Source: a virus (lineage: Duplodnaviria; Heunggongvirae; Uroviricota; Caudoviricetes). Taken from it: a stretch of DNA of 42,066 bases. The notes beneath the pieces were generated by a model that saw nothing but the letters and a program-made list of their open reading frames with translations, did no database searches and was not told the DNA's origin. Below, in pieces: positions 31,690 to 39,756 of this stretch. Both the position numbers and the translations under genes were made by a program. The DNA lies in IMG/VR virus record IMGVR_UViG_2541047679_000006, positions 1 to 42,066 of that record, one strand, 5' to 3'. Each line of letters opens with the position of its first letter. The stretch's first letter is position 1.

Positions 31690-33075
31690 ATGGCTACTTG
31701 GCAACAAGGAATCAACTCAGGCGGTTTTCTTGCTGGTATCGGTGGGCAAAACTCAAATGCGCCAAAGGCAAGTGATGTAAGTGAGGCGTTGGCCTATATT
31801 CGCCAGAACAACGAAATGGAGCGTTCAGGTCGCAATAACATCGGCCTTCAGGCGTTGCAGGGACTTGGTAGTGTCGCTCAAACATATCAAGCCGCAAAGC
31901 AACAGGAAGTGGATGCTGCATTCCAAAAAGAATATGCGGCAGCCATCCAGTCAGGTGATCGACAGCAGGTGCGAGATCTGATGACCAAATATCCTGGTCA
32001 ATTAGAGAAGATTCAGTCTGGTATGAAATGGGCAGACGAAGACCAGCGTGATGAAATTGGCAATCTAGCGGCAGGCGGTCAAATTGCCTCCATGATGGGG
32101 GGTGATGCATTTAGCAAGTGGATTGGAAACAATGCAACCAGATTGTCTAATCAGGGGGTAGACCCACAACAACTCCTCAGCATGTATCAAAAAGACCCAC
32201 AAGCAACATCACAACTTATCGGACAATATGGTCAGTTTGCATTAGGCCACGAAAAGTATTGGGATTTACAGGACAAGATGGTTGGTCGCCAGCAGGAGCA
32301 GCAAAGAATTAACGAAACCATTCGCAATAATGACATGACGAATGCGAGGGCTATTAGGGGGCAAAACCTTTCCTATCAGTCTGCAATGACCGGACACGGA
32401 CTTGCAGCAGAAAGACTGGCACTTGATAAGCAGAAATTCGGTTTTGAAGTGCAACAGGCACAAAAAAAGGCCGAGGAACTTATTAATGCTGCGCCAAAAT
32501 TATCAGTGAACATGGAAAAGGCTATAGAAAAATCAGCAGGTGATGCGGCAGCTAGTCGTAATGCTGCCGATTCAATGACAACGCTCGCTGACACGCTGGA
32601 GAAGGAGAAGCCAACTCCTGGTTTGTTCGGTAACGCTGAAAATATGTTCTCTAAGCTTACGGGGCAAGATAACTACCTCCGAGATATGCGGATTAGATTC
32701 AACCAACTAGCCAATGCGCAGGCAACCAAGCTTCTCCCTCCCGGCCCTGCATCAGATAAGGATATTGAGTTTGCAAGGAAAGGCATTCCAAGCGAAACGG
32801 ATAATCCAATGGTCATGGCTCGATGGTTAAGGGGTATGGCAAAAATGGAAAGTAATAACGCGAAGTTCAACGAGTTTAGGTCAGAGTGGATGAGTGCAAA
32901 CGGCAGCCCAGGACAATCTGATCGCAACCGAAACATCATGGGGATGGATGTTAAGAAGGGTGAATCATTGAACTCTGCGGCAAAACGTTTTCTTTCCTCA
33001 AGTTATGGCGATAGCCAACCTCAACAGCAATTGTCCGATGACGAATTAATTAGCAAATATCTCGGAGGGCAGTAA
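31690..33075 (+). CDS. Ejection protein (P22 gp20-like)
   Basis: 461-aa ORF in the gp20 position. Confidence 0.6.
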   Translation: MATWQQGINSGGFLAGIGGQNSNAPKASDVSEALAYIRQNNEMERSGRNNIGLQALQGLGSVAQTYQAAKQQEVDAAFQKEYAAAIQSGDRQQVRDLMTKYPGQLEKIQSGMKWADEDQRDEIGNLAAGGQIASMMGGDAFSKWIGNNATRLSNQGVDPQQLLSMYQKDPQATSQLIGQYGQFALGHEKYWDLQDKMVGRQQEQQRINETIRNNDMTNARAIRGQNLSYQSAMTGHGLAAERLALDKQKFGFEVQQAQKKAEELINAAPKLSVNMEKAIEKSAGDAAASRNAADSMTTLADTLEKEKPTPGLFGNAENMFSKLTGQDNYLRDMRIRFNQLANAQATKLLPPGPASDKDIEFARKGIPSETDNPMVMARWLRGMAKMESNNAKFNEFRSEWMSANGSPGQSDRNRNIMGMDVKKGESLNSAAKRFLSSSYGDSQPQQQLSDDELISKYLGGQ

Positions 33076-34985
33076 TGGCCTATAGTCGTGAACAGTTGAT
33101 GACAGCATTAAGGAACGCTGATGCGGCAGGCGATACAGAAGGAGCGCGTCGCATTGCTCAGATTCTGTCCTCCAGTAATCAACCAACTCAAAACCAAAAG
33201 CAGCCTGTAGAACAGCAAGATGGATTTATGTCTGACCTCGGCGAAGCAGTAAAAGAAACTGGTCGCGGACTGGTGCAGGCTGGTGTAAATGTGGCAAATA
33301 TACCAGCATCAGTTGCCGATGCTGTAACAAGCGCGGCGGCATGGGCTGGCGGCAAACTCGGTATTGGTGATGGAACATATCAACCAGCGCCACGAGTAAC
33401 AACTCAGGGATTAGAGCAGGCGTTTGGACTTCAGCAAGGTGCTCTGACTCCACAAACGACAGAAGGTAGGGTGTTTGCGGAGGCATTGCCTTACCTGGCT
33501 ACTGTTGGCGTTGGCGGCGCTTCAACTCAGGCGCCAACACTTGCTGGTCGAATTACTCAAGGCGCAGCCCGTCTTCTGGCAGAAAACGCAGTCGGATCAC
33601 TCGCCGCAAACAGTGAGAAAAATGATGCGGGAAAACTGGCAACAGATATAGGTGTTGGCATGCTAACAGGTGGTGCTGTTAATACTGTTGCAAAAGGACT
33701 TGAGCGTGGAATAACTGCCTTTAAAGGTGATATTGCACCAGAAGTGGCGAAGAAAATTGCCATATCAGAATCGATGGGCGTGACACCAATGACATCTGAT
33801 GTTATCCCGCCGAAAAATGCTTTCACTCGCGGCCTTACTCAGGATGCCGAGGGGGCTTTGCTCGGGACAGGCTCAAAGCGAGCTGAGCAGTATGCAAAGA
33901 GAAGTCAGCTAGTTAAAAAACAGCTTGAGAAATATGGTGAATATAGTCCATCAGTTGTTGTTGATGATCTGTATGGTTCTCTGAAGTCAAGGAAGGATTC
34001 GGCCGGAAGCGTTATTGAAGACATTACAACCAAAATGGGAGACACACCTGTTGACACATCAAAATCTATTAAGGTTATCGACAACGTACTTACCAGAGCT
34101 AACAGGCTTGGGAAAGTGGCAAATAAGGATTTGATTCGCGGGTTATCCGATTTGCGAGAAGAACTTGCTAAACCAGATATAGATTTTGGTCTATTGAGAG
34201 AGTTGCGGTCAGCCTTGAGGGAAAGTATTCAGGGAGATGCCATGGTTTTTCCTAATAGCGCGAAAGCCGCAACTGATGCCGTGGAGAGGGCAATGGGGGC
34301 AGATTTGAGGAATAACGCAGCGCGGTATTTGGGGGCTGGAGAGGCCGCCAGATACGTCAAAGCAAACTCTGACTACTCCAACGTCTTCAATAAAGTTCTC
34401 AATAAAAGGATTGCGAATAATCTCAACAAAGCTAAAAAAGAGTTTACTCCAGAGCTAATAAACAGCGTTGTATTCAGCAGAAAACCATCAGATATTAAGA
34501 GGATATGGCCTGCTCTTAGTGAAGATGGAAAGAACGCTATGCGTGCTGCTTATATCAGCAAGATTGCAGAAAAAGCAGGAGACTCACCAACAAAATTTCT
34601 TACCGAGTTAAATAAGTTGAAGTCGCAATCTGACGGTCAGATCTATAACACGATATTCAGTGGGAGACACATGAAAGAGCTTGATGCTCTTCATGAAGTT
34701 CTACAGCAAACAGCAAGGTCGGACGCCGCAAATGTAGTAACACAGACAGGACAATCGCAAGCTAACAGGATTAGAACGATTGGCGCAACTGCGACTCTTG
34801 GGGCAACACTGGCGCTTGAAGCTGGTTTCGGTGCAATCATGCGCTTGTACGAGTCCAAAGCAGCAAGGAATGCGCTCTTACGTCTGGCAAACACTAAAGC
34901 TGGAACGCCAGCCTATGAAAGAGCGTTAAGTAACGCTGCAAATGCCATCAGGCCGCTGCTTGCCACTGAGGCAACACAGCAGTAA
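33075..34985 (+). CDS. Ejection protein (P22 gp16-like)
   Basis: 636-aa ORF in the gp16 position; ATG overlaps the upstream stop. Confidence 0.6.
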   Translation: MAYSREQLMTALRNADAAGDTEGARRIAQILSSSNQPTQNQKQPVEQQDGFMSDLGEAVKETGRGLVQAGVNVANIPASVADAVTSAAAWAGGKLGIGDGTYQPAPRVTTQGLEQAFGLQQGALTPQTTEGRVFAEALPYLATVGVGGASTQAPTLAGRITQGAARLLAENAVGSLAANSEKNDAGKLATDIGVGMLTGGAVNTVAKGLERGITAFKGDIAPEVAKKIAISESMGVTPMTSDVIPPKNAFTRGLTQDAEGALLGTGSKRAEQYAKRSQLVKKQLEKYGEYSPSVVVDDLYGSLKSRKDSAGSVIEDITTKMGDTPVDTSKSIKVIDNVLTRANRLGKVANKDLIRGLSDLREELAKPDIDFGLLRELRSALRESIQGDAMVFPNSAKAATDAVERAMGADLRNNAARYLGAGEAARYVKANSDYSNVFNKVLNKRIANNLNKAKKEFTPELINSVVFSRKPSDIKRIWPALSEDGKNAMRAAYISKIAEKAGDSPTKFLTELNKLKSQSDGQIYNTIFSGRHMKELDALHEVLQQTARSDAANVVTQTGQSQANRIRTIGATATLGATLALEAGFGAIMRLYESKAARNALLRLANTKAGTPAYERALSNAANAIRPLLATEATQQ

Positions 34986-35009: not shown

Positions 35010-35399
35010 CTAACATTTTCTTTTTACTTTTCCAACAAAAGCTTTGGTTGAATCCATATTTCCATAACCGGAAATGGTTTTTGACATTAAAACTGTTCCA
35101 GTAGGATGTATTACCCATGAGTCGATAACGCGTTGAGTTTCGCCATTCGCGCCGATTCCTATGATGGAGTTTTTAGACAATGCTTTGTAAGCCATGCCGC
35201 CCGCATCTGTCCCAGAATATGTGATGCTGGCATCTTCACCGTTTGTCTTAATGATGAATGTTCCACTAAAACCATCTTCTTCCGGATGGAAATTATTTCG
35301 TTCTGAATAGCTTATTCCGCGCATATCTCCAACGACCCAGCACTCTGCTGTAGCCCCAAAAGATATGAATAAGAACATAGCAGTAAGAAATTGCTTCAC
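35010..35399 (-). CDS. Hypothetical secreted/periplasmic protein (129 aa, N-terminal signal peptide), moron candidate in the immI-equivalent region
   Basis: N-terminus MKQFLTAMFLFISFGATA-E is a typical Sec signal; convergent with the ejection genes; AT-rich. Confidence 0.55.
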   Translation of the reverse strand: MKQFLTAMFLFISFGATAECWVVGDMRGISYSERNNFHPEEDGFSGTFIIKTNGEDASITYSGTDAGGMAYKALSKNSIIGIGANGETQRVIDSWVIHPTGTVLMSKTISGYGNMDSTKAFVGKVKRKC

Positions 35400-35539
35400 A
35401 CCAACCTCCTTAGTTTTGAGCAGGATACCAGATGATACTGTATTGGTGGAGTGGTGTGTGAAAACGTGTCAACGACAAGCCATCCACAACTTGGACGAAT
35501 GATTTAGCAAAAAGTGCTATTTTTGGTGTTTAGTGTCAT

Positions 35540-35562: not shown

Positions 35563-35773
35563 CAACATTGCATGAAACTTGCAGGAAATGTGACATTACC
35601 TTATAGGTAACTTCGGCGAAAATGCAGTAAATGTGAAACGTAATGATTTAAACGTGTCGAGAAAGTGGTTGTAAGTTAGCCTCTGAAGGATTGATGACAG
35701 CTTTGTTATGGTATTAAATGCAACTTGACACAGTTGTATACATAGCTGCGGCTATCAAGATGGAGGTATGTTT

Positions 35774-36217
35774 ATGCTCACTTGTTTTGATGTCGCCGAC
35801 TACTTCTTGGCGCATTGCGATGAAGAAAGTGGCGACATTATCTCTAACCTAAAAATTCAGAAGTTGACGTATTATGCCCAAGGGTTTTCTCTGGTTCTTC
35901 TGGGTAAGCCGCTATTTAATGAGAAAATTGAAGCCTGGATGCATGGGCCAGTAGTTCCTGAATTGTATCGTAAATATAGGGACTGTGGTAACGGAGCTTT
36001 ACCTGCGCCAGAAAACTTTGACGCTAAAAAATTCAGTGAAGATGAAATTGAATTGCTGGATGAGGTGTATAAAGTTTATGGTCAGTTTTCTGCCTGGAAA
36101 CTGCGCAATATGACTCACGAAGAGCAGCCATGGAAAGATGCTTACATTGAGGGTGCGGTTAGCCAAGAAATCACACTTGATTCTATGAAAGGTTTTTTCA
36201 AAACGTTAATTAACTGA
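35774..36217 (+). CDS. GepA/Panacea-like (DUF4065-like) phage-associated protein, candidate antitoxin-type component
   Basis: Translation (…DVADYFLAHCDEESGDIISNLKIQKLTYYAQGFSLVLLGKPLF…WMHGPVVPELY…) fits my recollection of the GepA/Panacea family; GGAGG RBS 6 nt before the ATG at 35774. Confidence 0.65.
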   Translation: MLTCFDVADYFLAHCDEESGDIISNLKIQKLTYYAQGFSLVLLGKPLFNEKIEAWMHGPVVPELYRKYRDCGNGALPAPENFDAKKFSEDEIELLDEVYKVYGQFSAWKLRNMTHEEQPWKDAYIEGAVSQEITLDSMKGFFKTLIN

Positions 36218-36222
36218 CGTGT

Positions 36223-36645
36223 ATGTCTAGAGTTAAGGGAAGAATAAAACAGAGGGATAAAGAGAGCTCTGCTACTGTTGGCCTCTCTATCCATCACGAA
36301 TCTCATGATGTAGAAAAAAGTCCGCCTGTATTTTCTCTTAGATACCTACAAAAGGGGTATTGCCTGGATTGCTGCCAAAAGCATGAAAAGGCAGCATTTG
36401 CAGATAGGCTGTTCAGGTTAAGTCAGATGTCATGGGATGAGATACGAAAATCTGATAAACACGGGCTTGGGACGGAAAAAATTGCCAGAAACGCGATAAA
36501 GGCTCCGATTCCTAAGCATGTTACTCAAGATGTGGATTTCATTGCGTTCAGATTTTGCTCTAAGGCACCTATGGTTGGTTATAAGATAGGAGCCACTTTT
36601 TATGTCTTATGGCTCGACAGGGAGTTCAAGCTATACAAGCACTAA
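36223..36645 (+). CDS. Hypothetical protein (140 aa) tightly linked downstream of the GepA-like gene, candidate partner/toxin
   Basis: ATG 5 nt after the upstream stop with no SD of its own, suggesting translational coupling; basic N-terminus and CxxCC motif; unrecognised. Confidence 0.5.
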   Translation: MSRVKGRIKQRDKESSATVGLSIHHESHDVEKSPPVFSLRYLQKGYCLDCCQKHEKAAFADRLFRLSQMSWDEIRKSDKHGLGTEKIARNAIKAPIPKHVTQDVDFIAFRFCSKAPMVGYKIGATFYVLWLDREFKLYKH

Positions 36646-36672
36646 TAAAACCCACCGTCAGGTGGGTTTTTT
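36645..36672. terminator. Bidirectional intrinsic terminator between the 140-aa gene and mnt (AAACCCACC-GTCA-GGTGGGTTT flanked by A/T runs)
   Basis: 9-bp perfect stem with T-run on the plus strand and A-run on the other side; overlaps the mnt stop. Confidence 0.6.
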
Positions 36673-36918
36673 GTACAAATCCTTCAGCGTATCAAACACC
36701 ATCTTCTTAACAAGATCTGACTGCTCATCAGCGAGTCGTTCTGCATCGTCACGATACCCGCTTACAGGTGATGGTTTGGAGAGTGATTCTTCCATCGTAG
36801 CCACAATTTCGGAATTGATAGACCTGTTATTCATTTTTGCACGCTGCTTAATCTTAGCGTGCAACTCGTGCGTAAGCCTCAAGTGGAACTGCGCCTCATC
36901 GTATTTGCTGTACATCAT
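36658..36918 (-). CDS. mnt: Mnt-like repressor (P22 immI ribbon-helix-helix family), without arc or ant
   Basis: C-terminal 86 aa (…AKMNNRSINSEIVATMEESLSKPSPVSGYRDDAERLADEQSDLVKKMVFDTLKDLYKKPT) closely match P22 Mnt as I recall it; ATG at 36918 with GGTGAGG RBS; the longer track ORF is an upstream read-through. Confidence 0.8.
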   Translation of the reverse strand: MMYSKYDEAQFHLRLTHELHAKIKQRAKMNNRSINSEIVATMEESLSKPSPVSGYRDDAERLADEQSDLVKKMVFDTLKDLYKKPT

Positions 36919-37050
36919 CAATGCCTCACCAAATGGGTGGAATGGCATCGTAAAACCTACTGTACAAATCAACAATCGTACCATTTCGGTATGTAACAAA
37001 TTCCAACCGTAGCCATGCTTCGGTGATTCCTTGTATCTGGAGCAAATTAA

Positions 37051-39756
37051 ATGACAGACATTACAGCCAATGTTGTAGTGAGTATGCCTTCGCAACTCTT
37101 CACTATGGCGCGTTCTTTTAAAGCCGTAGCCAATGGCAAAATTTATATCGGTAAAATTGACACTGACCCGGTAAATCCTGAAAACCAGATTCAGGTTTAT
37201 GTAGAGAACGAAGACGGTTCTCACATTCCTGTTTCGCAACCAATAATCATTAACGCTGCTGGATATCCGGTATATAACGGACAGATTGCCAAATTCGTAA
37301 CCGTGCAAGGCCATTCTATGGCTGTTTACGATGCTTATGGCACTCAGCAGTTTTATTTTCCAAATGTATTAAAATACGATCCAGATCAGTTTGGCCCAGA
37401 CTTCAAAGAGCAGTTATCTCAATCAGGAGCATACATTAATGATGATTCAAAAGGTGATGCATTAATTGGGGTAAGGCAGCCATTTACCGGGGCTGTAACT
37501 ATAACTCAGCATGAAAACAATGCTCTTTTCTTAAATGTAAAACAATTCGGAGCAATTGGGGATGGGAAATATCATCCATTATCTGAGAGGTTTTCTTCAA
37601 TTTCTGAAGCAAAATCCTTATATCCTTTTGTTGACTCATTATCTCAGTCAATAGACTGGGCCGCGTGGCAAGCTGCCCTTAACACAGGAAAGGTTATTTA
37701 TGGTACTGATAATGCGTATGTAATAACGGATACGTTAACACCTGTTTCTGGTGGTGGGATAATTGGTCTTGGTGTGGGCAAATGGGTCTCCGGATATACT
37801 GCAACATTTGCTCCTGATATTACCACAGGGACCACATTCCTGATGTACGGGGTAGGAAATAAAAAATATACTGTAGATTGTGTTTCTAATATGGATGTTA
37901 GTGGTGGTGTGGTTTCTAATCCATCTTCCGAAGACCCGTATACAACAACAGCACCTGCGTCATCATATGATTTATTGGATTTTACTAACGGTGATGCTAA
38001 TGGGACTACAAGAGCCACGCTTAAACCATTCTCTGCCGCAATATTGATGCCTGAGACAGGATGTGTTCGCCTTGAGAACTTTCGTGTTGTTCCATATTTC
38101 AATGGGCTGGATGGTTATAAAGACATTGCAAATACCGGTCTTGGCGATGAGTGGGATGTAGGTATTTGGTCACGTGCGTCTTTTGGCAATGAATACCGCA
38201 ATTTGCAGGTGGTTGGATACTGGCGCAAGACGGCACTTTTAAAAACGAACATTCCTGTATCTGGCACGCTGGCTGCTCAGGGCGAGGATGAAAACTATTA
38301 TCACTGTAGATTCCAGGGATTCAAGGGTGTTTCGATCCGCGCCAATGATGTATTCCGAATTACAGCGGTAACGTCCAGCACTATCGAAATCCCATGGTCA
38401 GCAAGCCACACCTTCGAAACGTCCGGAGTTTTAAGATCTGGAGGCAGGAATTTCACTTATTCAGGATTATCCGTATCCGGTGATAAGTTAGTATTTACTG
38501 GAGTGTCTAACGCTTCTGAGGCAACAGTAGGTTCTACTATACGGCGAAATGACATAGATAACTTTGGTATGGCGGGAACGCAATTTTTCGATTGCTACAT
38601 TACCAGCCTGTATCACCACACACATCTGCTTGCCACATCGCAATACCTGTCTCAACCATTCAGCCGACCATCAGAGTGTATGGAGGTTTCAGGGGAACCA
38701 GTTCGCGGTGTACAGGTACATGCAGGAACCATTCAGGGATGGGATGATGTTCTTATTCATCTGCATGACTGTGGAAATATGAACTTTTACAGTACATATT
38801 TCGAAAGCCAGCAAGCATATGTAACTATAAATGGTGGTAATGCTATTGGTTATGGAGCACGTATGATAGCTTCCCGGCAATCAACAAGCTCATTACCATA
38901 TGCAGCAGGGAATACACGAGTGCTTAGAATGGTCGGGTGCTCTGAAGGCAATGGCGTTGACTGGGGTCCTGTATTTAACAACTATACAGGAGGAAGATAT
39001 AATTCTGGAGACGGTGTATTTAACCCCCGCGATGCATTTATAGACCATAAATCTCTTCCTGAGCAGTCAGGAGGTGAGTCAAGACTCGTATCACAAAAAG
39101 GAAATGCCAGAGTAGTATGTGGTGTTGGTAAAACTGTACTGCTTGGACCAACGTCAGGAGATTGTAATTTACAGAGTAATACCGGAAGTTTAAATATTAG
39201 AAGTGGGATAAGAGTAAGAGTCGGTCACGCTGATGGAACAGACTGGTGGTTGGCAGATGCTAATAAAATAGCTCCTGTTGATGATAATGTTAAAGCTATT
39301 GGACAGCCATCAAACAGATGCTCTGTTATCTATGCAGGAACCGGGTCAATCAATACATCAGATGAAACTCTTAAAACAAGATATGATATTCTTAATGCAG
39401 AGCGTGATGCCGCTATTGAAATAAAGTCAGTCATCTATAAATTTAAATTTAATGACTCAATTAATCACAAAGGAATTGAGTCGTCCAGGTATCATTTTGG
39501 CGTTGGCGCTCAAACCGTAGGGGATATTCTTAGAAAGCATGGTTTAAATCCTGAGCAATATGCTTTTTGGTGTTACGATGAATGGCCTGACGTATGGGAT
39601 GAAGAGGTGATAACTGAAGAGAGCACAGATCCTGATACAGGTGAGAAAATTTATTCTCAATATAAAACAGGAGATATGATTCTTGTAAAAAAAGCAGGAG
39701 GACGCTACGGAATTCGTTATGACGAATTGGCTATGTTTATATTAATGGCAATGTAG
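37051..39756 (+). CDS. Tailspike: P22-type N-terminal head-binding domain, divergent central receptor-binding domain, C-terminal S74-like intramolecular chaperone domain
   Basis: N-terminus [47 protein letters not shown]… matches the P22 gp9 head-binding domain; remainder unlike P22; C-terminus has an S-D-x-x-L-K motif (…[15 protein letters not shown]…). Confidence 0.85.

Follow-up and report, generated by a model that had tools for sequence, protein, structure and literature searches.

T5 Llp, phi80/N15 Cor, Streptococcus TP-J34 Ltp, and T4 Sp are small exported superinfection-exclusion proteins of phages or prophages, either lipoproteins or periplasmic, that stop DNA entry outside the cytoplasm. 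In P22 the DNA-entry blocker is SieA, which has 3 TM segments in the inner membrane and lacks a signal sequence (PMC10883804). The conduit formed by the ejection proteins gp7, gp20, and gp16 assembles in the periplasm, and P546S in P22 gp16 is one of the changes that allow escape from SieA (PMC10883804). The gene hex takes its name from "heterologous exclusion": Salmonella lysogens of lambda imm434 exclude P22, an ability lost in hex- lysogens, and the genetic definition of Hex is credited to Susskind and Botstein (Virology 1980) in the 2013 paper of Shkilnyj, Colon, and Koudelka, who describe Hex as co-transcribed with cI from PRM in lysogens (PMC3564112).

The window analyzed here is a stretch of 42,066 nucleotides (positions 1 to 42,066 of IMG/VR record IMGVR_UViG_2541047679_000006, a member of the Caudoviricetes) from a P22-like prophage, and in the slot that sieA occupies in P22 it carries a gene whose product belongs to the Hex family. 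This gene lies at 35010..35399 on the minus strand and encodes a pre-protein of 129 aa, with a GTG start at 35399-35397 and a TAG stop at 35012-35010 in the ORF list. A strong Shine-Dalgarno sequence, AAGGAGG (35411-35405, minus strand), stands 5 nt upstream of the GTG. The gene is convergent with that of the gp16 ejection protein (33075..34985, plus strand), which shares 52% identity with its P22 counterpart, at a stop-to-stop distance of 24 nt, and genes matching Pfam P22_gp7 and Inj_translocase (gp20) lie upstream of gp16. The initial annotation had described a 129-aa protein encoded on the opposite strand directly after gp16 and had noted sieA in the matching P22 slot; both statements hold, since in the P22 record 22 nt separate gene 16 from sieA, which is oriented likewise. 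The window gp16 itself has no match in Pfam at E<=0.001, and thus none to Phage_P22_gp16, despite its identity to the P22 protein; it has Ala where P22 has Pro546, and Gly532 of P22 is conserved.

The RefSeq/PGAP form of the protein (WP_001334102.1) is 122 aa long and begins at an internal ATG, codon 8 of the longer frame (35378 rather than 35399). We prefer the 129-aa form because a Shine-Dalgarno sequence is present and because ATG-initiated alleles, which read MKLIIAMAFLVFSFSVSA up to the ECW of the mature protein, are equal to it in length. The shorter start drops the basic n-region, so signal-peptide predictors would be less likely to flag the protein.

The likeness to sieA extends into the nucleotide sequence. 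The 34 nt ending in GTG are tggtatcctgcTcaaaactaaggaggttggtGTG in the window and tggtatcctgcAcaaaactaaggaggttggtGTG at P22 sieA, identical at 33 of 34 positions across leader, Shine-Dalgarno sequence, and GTG; the 31-nt 5' leader common to the two genes occupies 35400..35430 (minus strand). Since two unrelated ORFs stand on one leader, Shine-Dalgarno sequence, and start codon, the arrangement amounts to a cassette swap for sieA, and in the E. coli matches the cassette has sharp borders at ~35011 and ~35430-35435. Upstream of the leader, the contigs that carry the gene fall into ~15 unrelated contexts, and of 15 upstream context types 13 keep the leader in front of the gene, including two (L115 and L151) in which its first 10-14 nt have diverged. 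In another context class (L091), which accounts for 14 of 80 contigs, the match to the region upstream of P22 sieA extends over more than 150 nt and includes the annotated promoter. A tblastn search for P22-type sieA, one of three SieA types, found it absent from the window and from the ~4-kb flanks of the gene in the 80 loci that carry it. The two proteins are unrelated in sequence: SieA has 3 TM segments, and the window protein is all-beta in the structural models, with one N-terminal hydrophobic segment, and is predicted to be soluble and exported.

How the gene is transcribed in the window is less clear. A candidate promoter region at 35432..35472 (minus strand) contains a -10-like TATCAT (35437-35432) and a -35-like TTCACA (35462-35457) separated by a 19-nt spacer, and this TTCACA-N19-TATCAT combination was the best alternative pair in a hexamer scan. 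In an alignment with the promoter annotated for P22 sieA, its -35 end, TTGGTA, falls opposite a TTGACA at 35472-35467 of the window, and 12 extra bases place this TTGACA 29 nt from TATCAT. With such a spacer in the sieA-type promoter, expression in the window context is uncertain and the promoter weak or unclear; a stricter promoter scan of the region reported none. A conserved promoter belonging to the gene itself was also considered, and none was complete, as homology between contexts begins only ~31-40 nt upstream of the GTG. Some phages retain the sieA promoter region, and the gene is presumably expressed from the prophage in the same manner as sieA.

The protein is linked to Hex by several sequence comparisons. 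In BLASTP, it is 27% identical to 434 Hex along the whole protein (E 3e-12), with ECW and STKxFVGxVxxxC common to both, and the two match the same profile, phrog_2651 ("unknown function"), the window protein at 2.9e-61 (positions 1-116 of the 117 in the profile) and 434 Hex at 1.4e-58 from end to end. A permissive tblastn search of the phage collection returned full-length matches of ~27% in 434, lambda imm434, HK446, HK633, Shigella phage Sf6 (gene 38), and Sf101, and in all of these the matched gene overlaps the end of cI. An exhaustive profile search (E<=1e-3) gathered 126 clusters at 50% identity, nearly all of 120-140 aa and one of them a fragment of Hex, and the ~105 full-length representatives have in common a signal peptide, an xCW mature start, and a C-terminal FVGxVxGxC. 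A narrower profile search of the genome contigs returned only two loci, and a profile search of a word-indexed sequence database added few sequences. Pfam, NCBIfam, and PADLOC hold no family that matches the window protein, Hex, or 72 relatives. Judged by these alignments, the window protein is a distant member, a paralogue, of the family of 434 Hex and Sf6 gp38.

The two branches share phrog_2651, a length of 129 versus 134 aa, the order of signal peptide, xCW, and FVGxVxGxC, and, in temperate phages of enterobacteria, a location downstream of a repressor that maintains lysogeny. They differ in that identity is limited to 27% and in that 434 hex belongs to the cI-PRM operon, whereas the window gene sits after gp16 in immI, in the sieA slot, rather than in a placement co-transcribed with cI; the position behind mnt in related phages is its functional analogue. 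The gene at 35010-35399 is alone of its family in the window. On one P22-like IMG/VR contig of 41 kb (UViG_648276644_000012; loci L074 and L113), a 434-type hex beside cI occurs together with a paralogue in the sieA slot, which suggests that the Hex branches are non-redundant. The gene is "hypothetical" in all annotations that carry it, with a link to Sf6 gene 38 noted in the record of Salmonella phage vB_SemP_Emek, and the literature that we searched mentions neither the connection between the window gene and Hex, nor a signal peptide in Hex, nor the cassette swap on the sieA leader.

The initial annotation had also proposed a Sec signal and a Cys near each end of the mature protein, and this reading agrees with the (-3,-1) rules and with family conservation, the 2 grounds on which we call the signal peptide. 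Codons 1-18 (35346..35399, minus strand) encode MKQFLTAMFLFISFGATA, with a basic n-region, a 13-residue hydrophobic core, and A-x-A ahead of the predicted signal peptidase I cut, which falls after ATA and before ECWVV. Of the 105 full-length family representatives, 79 have Ala at -1 and 97 a small residue there (A/S/G/T), 96 have A/S/V/T/L/I at -3, and 95 show a net positive charge over the first eight residues. Directly after the Cys stands W, Y, or F in 99 of these proteins, and directly before it E/S/Q/A/D/N in 85; in 91 the last Cys lies no more than 3 residues from the C-terminus. The predicted mature protein of 111 aa (35013..35345, minus strand) runs from ECWVV to FVGKVKRKC, so that Cys20 is mature position 2 and Cys129 the final residue; both are invariant in the full-length family alignments A2 and A6. 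A lipoprotein was considered and ruled out: A-T-A-E-C is without the lipobox [LVI][ASTVI][GAS]C because Glu precedes the Cys, and the residues before the Cys across the family are mostly incompatible with a lipobox. By their sequences, then, family members are predicted to be signal peptidase I substrates with a terminal Cys pair in the mature form. A terminal Cys pair on an exported protein is typical of periplasmic proteins oxidized by DsbA, and a Cys20-Cys129 disulfide would probably join the first and last strands.

Structure prediction gave a consistent picture once the alignment was deep enough. AF2 with 10 sequences produced 2 confident models of 5, and with 16 sequences all 5 agreed, at an overall pLDDT of 86-88, with 93-97 in the mature part and 52-64 in the leader. 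In these models the fold class is clear, a soluble-type meander beta-barrel of 9-10 strands. Structure searches matched small meander barrels generically, at 3-14% identity and a Foldseek TM of ~0.45, and since the matches are generic, neither function nor target can be deduced from the fold. The C-domain of neisserial NHBA, the calycins and avidins, and MliC/PliC-type proteins (Brucella PhiA) resemble the predicted barrel in fold only, and no motif is common to them and the window protein.

Selection and distribution show that this is more than a chance ORF, since dN/dS is low, occurrence is wide, and the signal-peptide and Cys pattern is family-wide. Comparison with three diverged alleles gives a dN/dS of 0.07-0.10 for the mature part, and the signal-peptide codons are relaxed or wholly replaced among alleles in which the mature part is conserved. 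Such relaxation or replacement of leader codons is usual for a cleaved leader. Of 5426 complete E. coli genomes, 147 (2.7%) carry a copy that is 95-100% identical, in all cases on the chromosome, and at least 80 IMG/VR contigs carry the gene. In Salmonella phages, vB_SemP_Emek has a product (orf129) that is 96.9% identical and encoded in the same slot, and that of ST-35 is 96.1% identical. The ORF is intact in the window-type context in Emek, in 23 E. coli genomes that match the whole 901-nt context, and in one further contig class (L114). Family members outside recognizable prophages were found in Aeromonas and Pectobacterium, beside IS elements.

Upstream contexts of the gene repeatedly contain a repressor. 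In P22, the order going upstream of sieA is orf59a and then mnt, according to the P22 record. Mnt maintains lysogeny in P22, in agreement with the annotation of that record. In the window, mnt (85 aa; Pfam Repressor_Mnt and Arc) lies at 36658..36915 on the same strand as the Hex-like gene. A 218-aa ORF at 36658-37314 (minus strand) over-extends mnt, as homology is confined to its last 85 codons and the extension overlaps the start region of the tailspike gene. That tailspike (37051-39756, plus strand; 901 aa) has a P22-type head-binding domain (residues 1-113), and its C-terminal part carries weak signatures of the endosialidase type (End_tail_spike) and of the Peptidase_S74 intramolecular chaperone; it is a mosaic protein, probably self-cleaving, with a non-P22 receptor domain.

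In a context type represented by 13 contigs (L158), mnt is followed by a gene for a secreted 111-aa protein and then by the Hex-like gene, and mnt-headed operons with the Hex-like gene in last place were also found at L115, L127, and L151. At other loci the head of the operon is a different RHH repressor (L138 and L092) or an HTH repressor (L107 and L145), and in E. coli E7476 the Hex-like gene is likewise distal in a repressor-headed operon. Locus L009, which carries a 50%-identical homologue, has the order mnt, lipoprotein gene, Hex-like gene, and convergent gp16. If the association of Hex with cI is considered together with that of the sieA-slot branch with mnt, both branches are wired to transcription units that maintain lysogeny.

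An obligate partner gene was ruled out, because the upstream neighbor varies by locus: it encodes a lipoprotein in L009, a secreted phrog_3870 protein in L158 and Silvania, and a membrane protein in Aeromonas, and elsewhere there is none. The secreted protein of 111-113 aa that precedes the Hex-like gene is encoded at 3650-3982 of L158 and at 4646-4987 of L173 (Silvania confinis), and the 150-aa lipoprotein at 2002-2454 of L009 (phrog_6067) has an LSGC lipobox and a weak N-terminal match to Cor. With such exported neighbors in mnt operons, the immI slot seems to collect envelope-targeted cargo.

The Hex-like gene and mnt are not neighbors in the window or in Emek, where opposite-strand cargo separates them. 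In the window it consists of a gene with a SocA/Panacea antitoxin domain (35768-36217, plus strand; Pfam 2.2e-24) and a partner gene of 140 aa (36223-36645, plus strand; phrog_8366) with weak matches to the C-terminus of PADLOC NsnC (1.8e-7) and to NCBIfam MAG6450. This Panacea pair (35768-36645) looks like a PanA-type toxin-antitoxin or defense pair and a separate cargo, and the E. coli matches show the pair and the Hex-like cassette moving separately.

We propose, with moderate confidence, that the window gene encodes a Hex-family periplasmic protein that is made in the lysogen and excludes incoming phages at the envelope stage. Sec would export the pre-protein and signal peptidase I would remove its first 18 residues, cutting after Ala18, to leave a 111-residue soluble periplasmic beta-barrel with a probable Cys20-Cys129 disulfide. 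As an interchangeable cassette, the gene occupies the cargo slot of P22 immI and borrows the translation-initiation region of sieA, and it would most likely be expressed in the lysogen, as is Hex, from the cI operon, and as its alleles in mnt operons would be. Action would then most likely be in the periplasm and on incoming phages, and the likeliest mechanism would be interference with the trans-envelope DNA delivery of P22-like phages, either at the ejection-protein conduit or at passage of the cell wall. The mode of action proposed would then be an extracytoplasmic block of DNA entry, as with Llp, Cor, Ltp, and Sp; the window protein differs from these in having neither a lipobox nor any sequence or family match to them, and in a predicted beta-barrel as against the helical fold of Ltp.

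Four points support this exclusion reading. The one characterized relative, Hex, excludes P22, and homology with 434 Hex lends real support to the idea of exclusion; the gene precisely replaces the DNA-entry blocker sieA; the predicted location is the site at which the gp7/gp20/gp16 conduit assembles; and co-transcription with lysogeny repressors recurs. A relative of an exclusion protein in the sieA slot would thus probably protect the lysogen from the periplasm. Against the same reading, identity to Hex is only 27%, so that function may have diverged; the only mechanistic paper on Hex proposes a cytoplasmic role; in the window the divergently oriented Panacea pair parts the gene from mnt and the sieA-type promoter has the 29-nt spacer; family members also occur outside recognizable prophages; and the generic barrel matches point to no target.

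A different role in the envelope has to be weighed against phage exclusion. The protein could serve lysogenic conversion or host fitness and exclude no phage at all, as a calycin-like ligand binder, a periplasmic inhibitor of lysozyme or of another hydrolase (the MliC/PliC kind), or a moron for stress or serum resistance. A fold of a generic ligand-binder or inhibitor-like type would suit such a role, as would the homologues at IS-flanked chromosomal sites in Aeromonas and Pectobacterium. On the other hand, neither the window protein nor its 72 relatives matched such families in Pfam, NCBIfam, or PADLOC, the MliC/PliC lysozyme-inhibitor profile was not matched by the window protein, and the structural matches are generic ones. 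In addition, Hex as the sole member with a phenotype excludes a phage, and sieA has been precisely replaced. We consider a purely host-directed role the main rival, and less likely than exclusion.

The mechanism published for 434 Hex places its action in the cytoplasm, where it would block the RecA-stimulated autocleavage of repressor and so stabilize lysogeny. Deletion of hex raises spontaneous induction ~30-fold in recA+ and not in recA- hosts, and in vitro purified sHex protects the repressors of 434 and P22 from cleavage (PMC3564112). These lysogen-stability genetics remain unaccounted for by the exclusion model. At the level of sequence, the RecA model is hard to reconcile with the predicted export signal, since a signal peptide of the cleavable type and the terminal Cys pair are found family-wide. 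Over-expression toxicity is common among secreted proteins. Full-length Hex is toxic on over-expression, and the stable fragment sHex is E43-N103 of a 158-aa ORF (PMC3564112). By translation, this ORF of 434 (L004, 2429-2905) consists of a 24-residue extension and a 134-aa protein, Glu43 is the first residue past the predicted signal peptidase site of 434 Hex (cut between ANS and ECW), and the end of the fragment is Asn79 of the 134-aa form, so that sHex, which was purified through GuHCl, comprises about half of the predicted barrel. A signal peptide in Hex is not considered in that paper (PMC3564112). The window gene, for its part, is unlinked to cI, and its relatives include loci without any repressor. 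Cytoplasmic action on RecA-stimulated cleavage is therefore improbable for the window protein. A third alternative, an outer-membrane beta-barrel of the Lom/Ail/OmpX kind that is inserted by BAM and alters the cell surface, is very improbable, given only 111 mature residues with most strands of 5-9 residues, a basic C-terminus (KVKRKC) without an aromatic beta-signal, the conserved terminal Cys pair, and no match to the OMP profiles of the OmpX/Ail/Lom, PagP, and OmpW class.

If periplasmic exclusion is taken as the working model for the window protein, it may be extended, tentatively and with low confidence, to the entire Hex family of ~126 clusters. Its members might all form a class not recognized before, that of soluble, disulfide-stapled periplasmic barrels that block the periplasmic DNA delivery of P22-like podophages. 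Temperate phages would deploy them from cI or from mnt/sieA expression slots, and they might attach to the gp20/gp7 conduit, for instance, or to wall-penetrating parts of the virion, in which case the RecA activity of the Hex fragment, a half barrel, would be non-physiological.

The window protein is a new distant member of a poorly understood kind, that of Hex, and not something categorically new. A second and unrelated protein in the sieA expression cassette would offer an independent handle on the trans-periplasmic ejection conduit, this time from its periplasmic side. Periplasmic exclusion would also be a testable mechanism for exclusion of the Hex type, and one that challenges the only published mechanism of Hex. 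If phage exclusion proves true, then host range in phage typing and therapy could be affected, given that the gene is present in 2.7% of complete E. coli genomes and in Salmonella phages.
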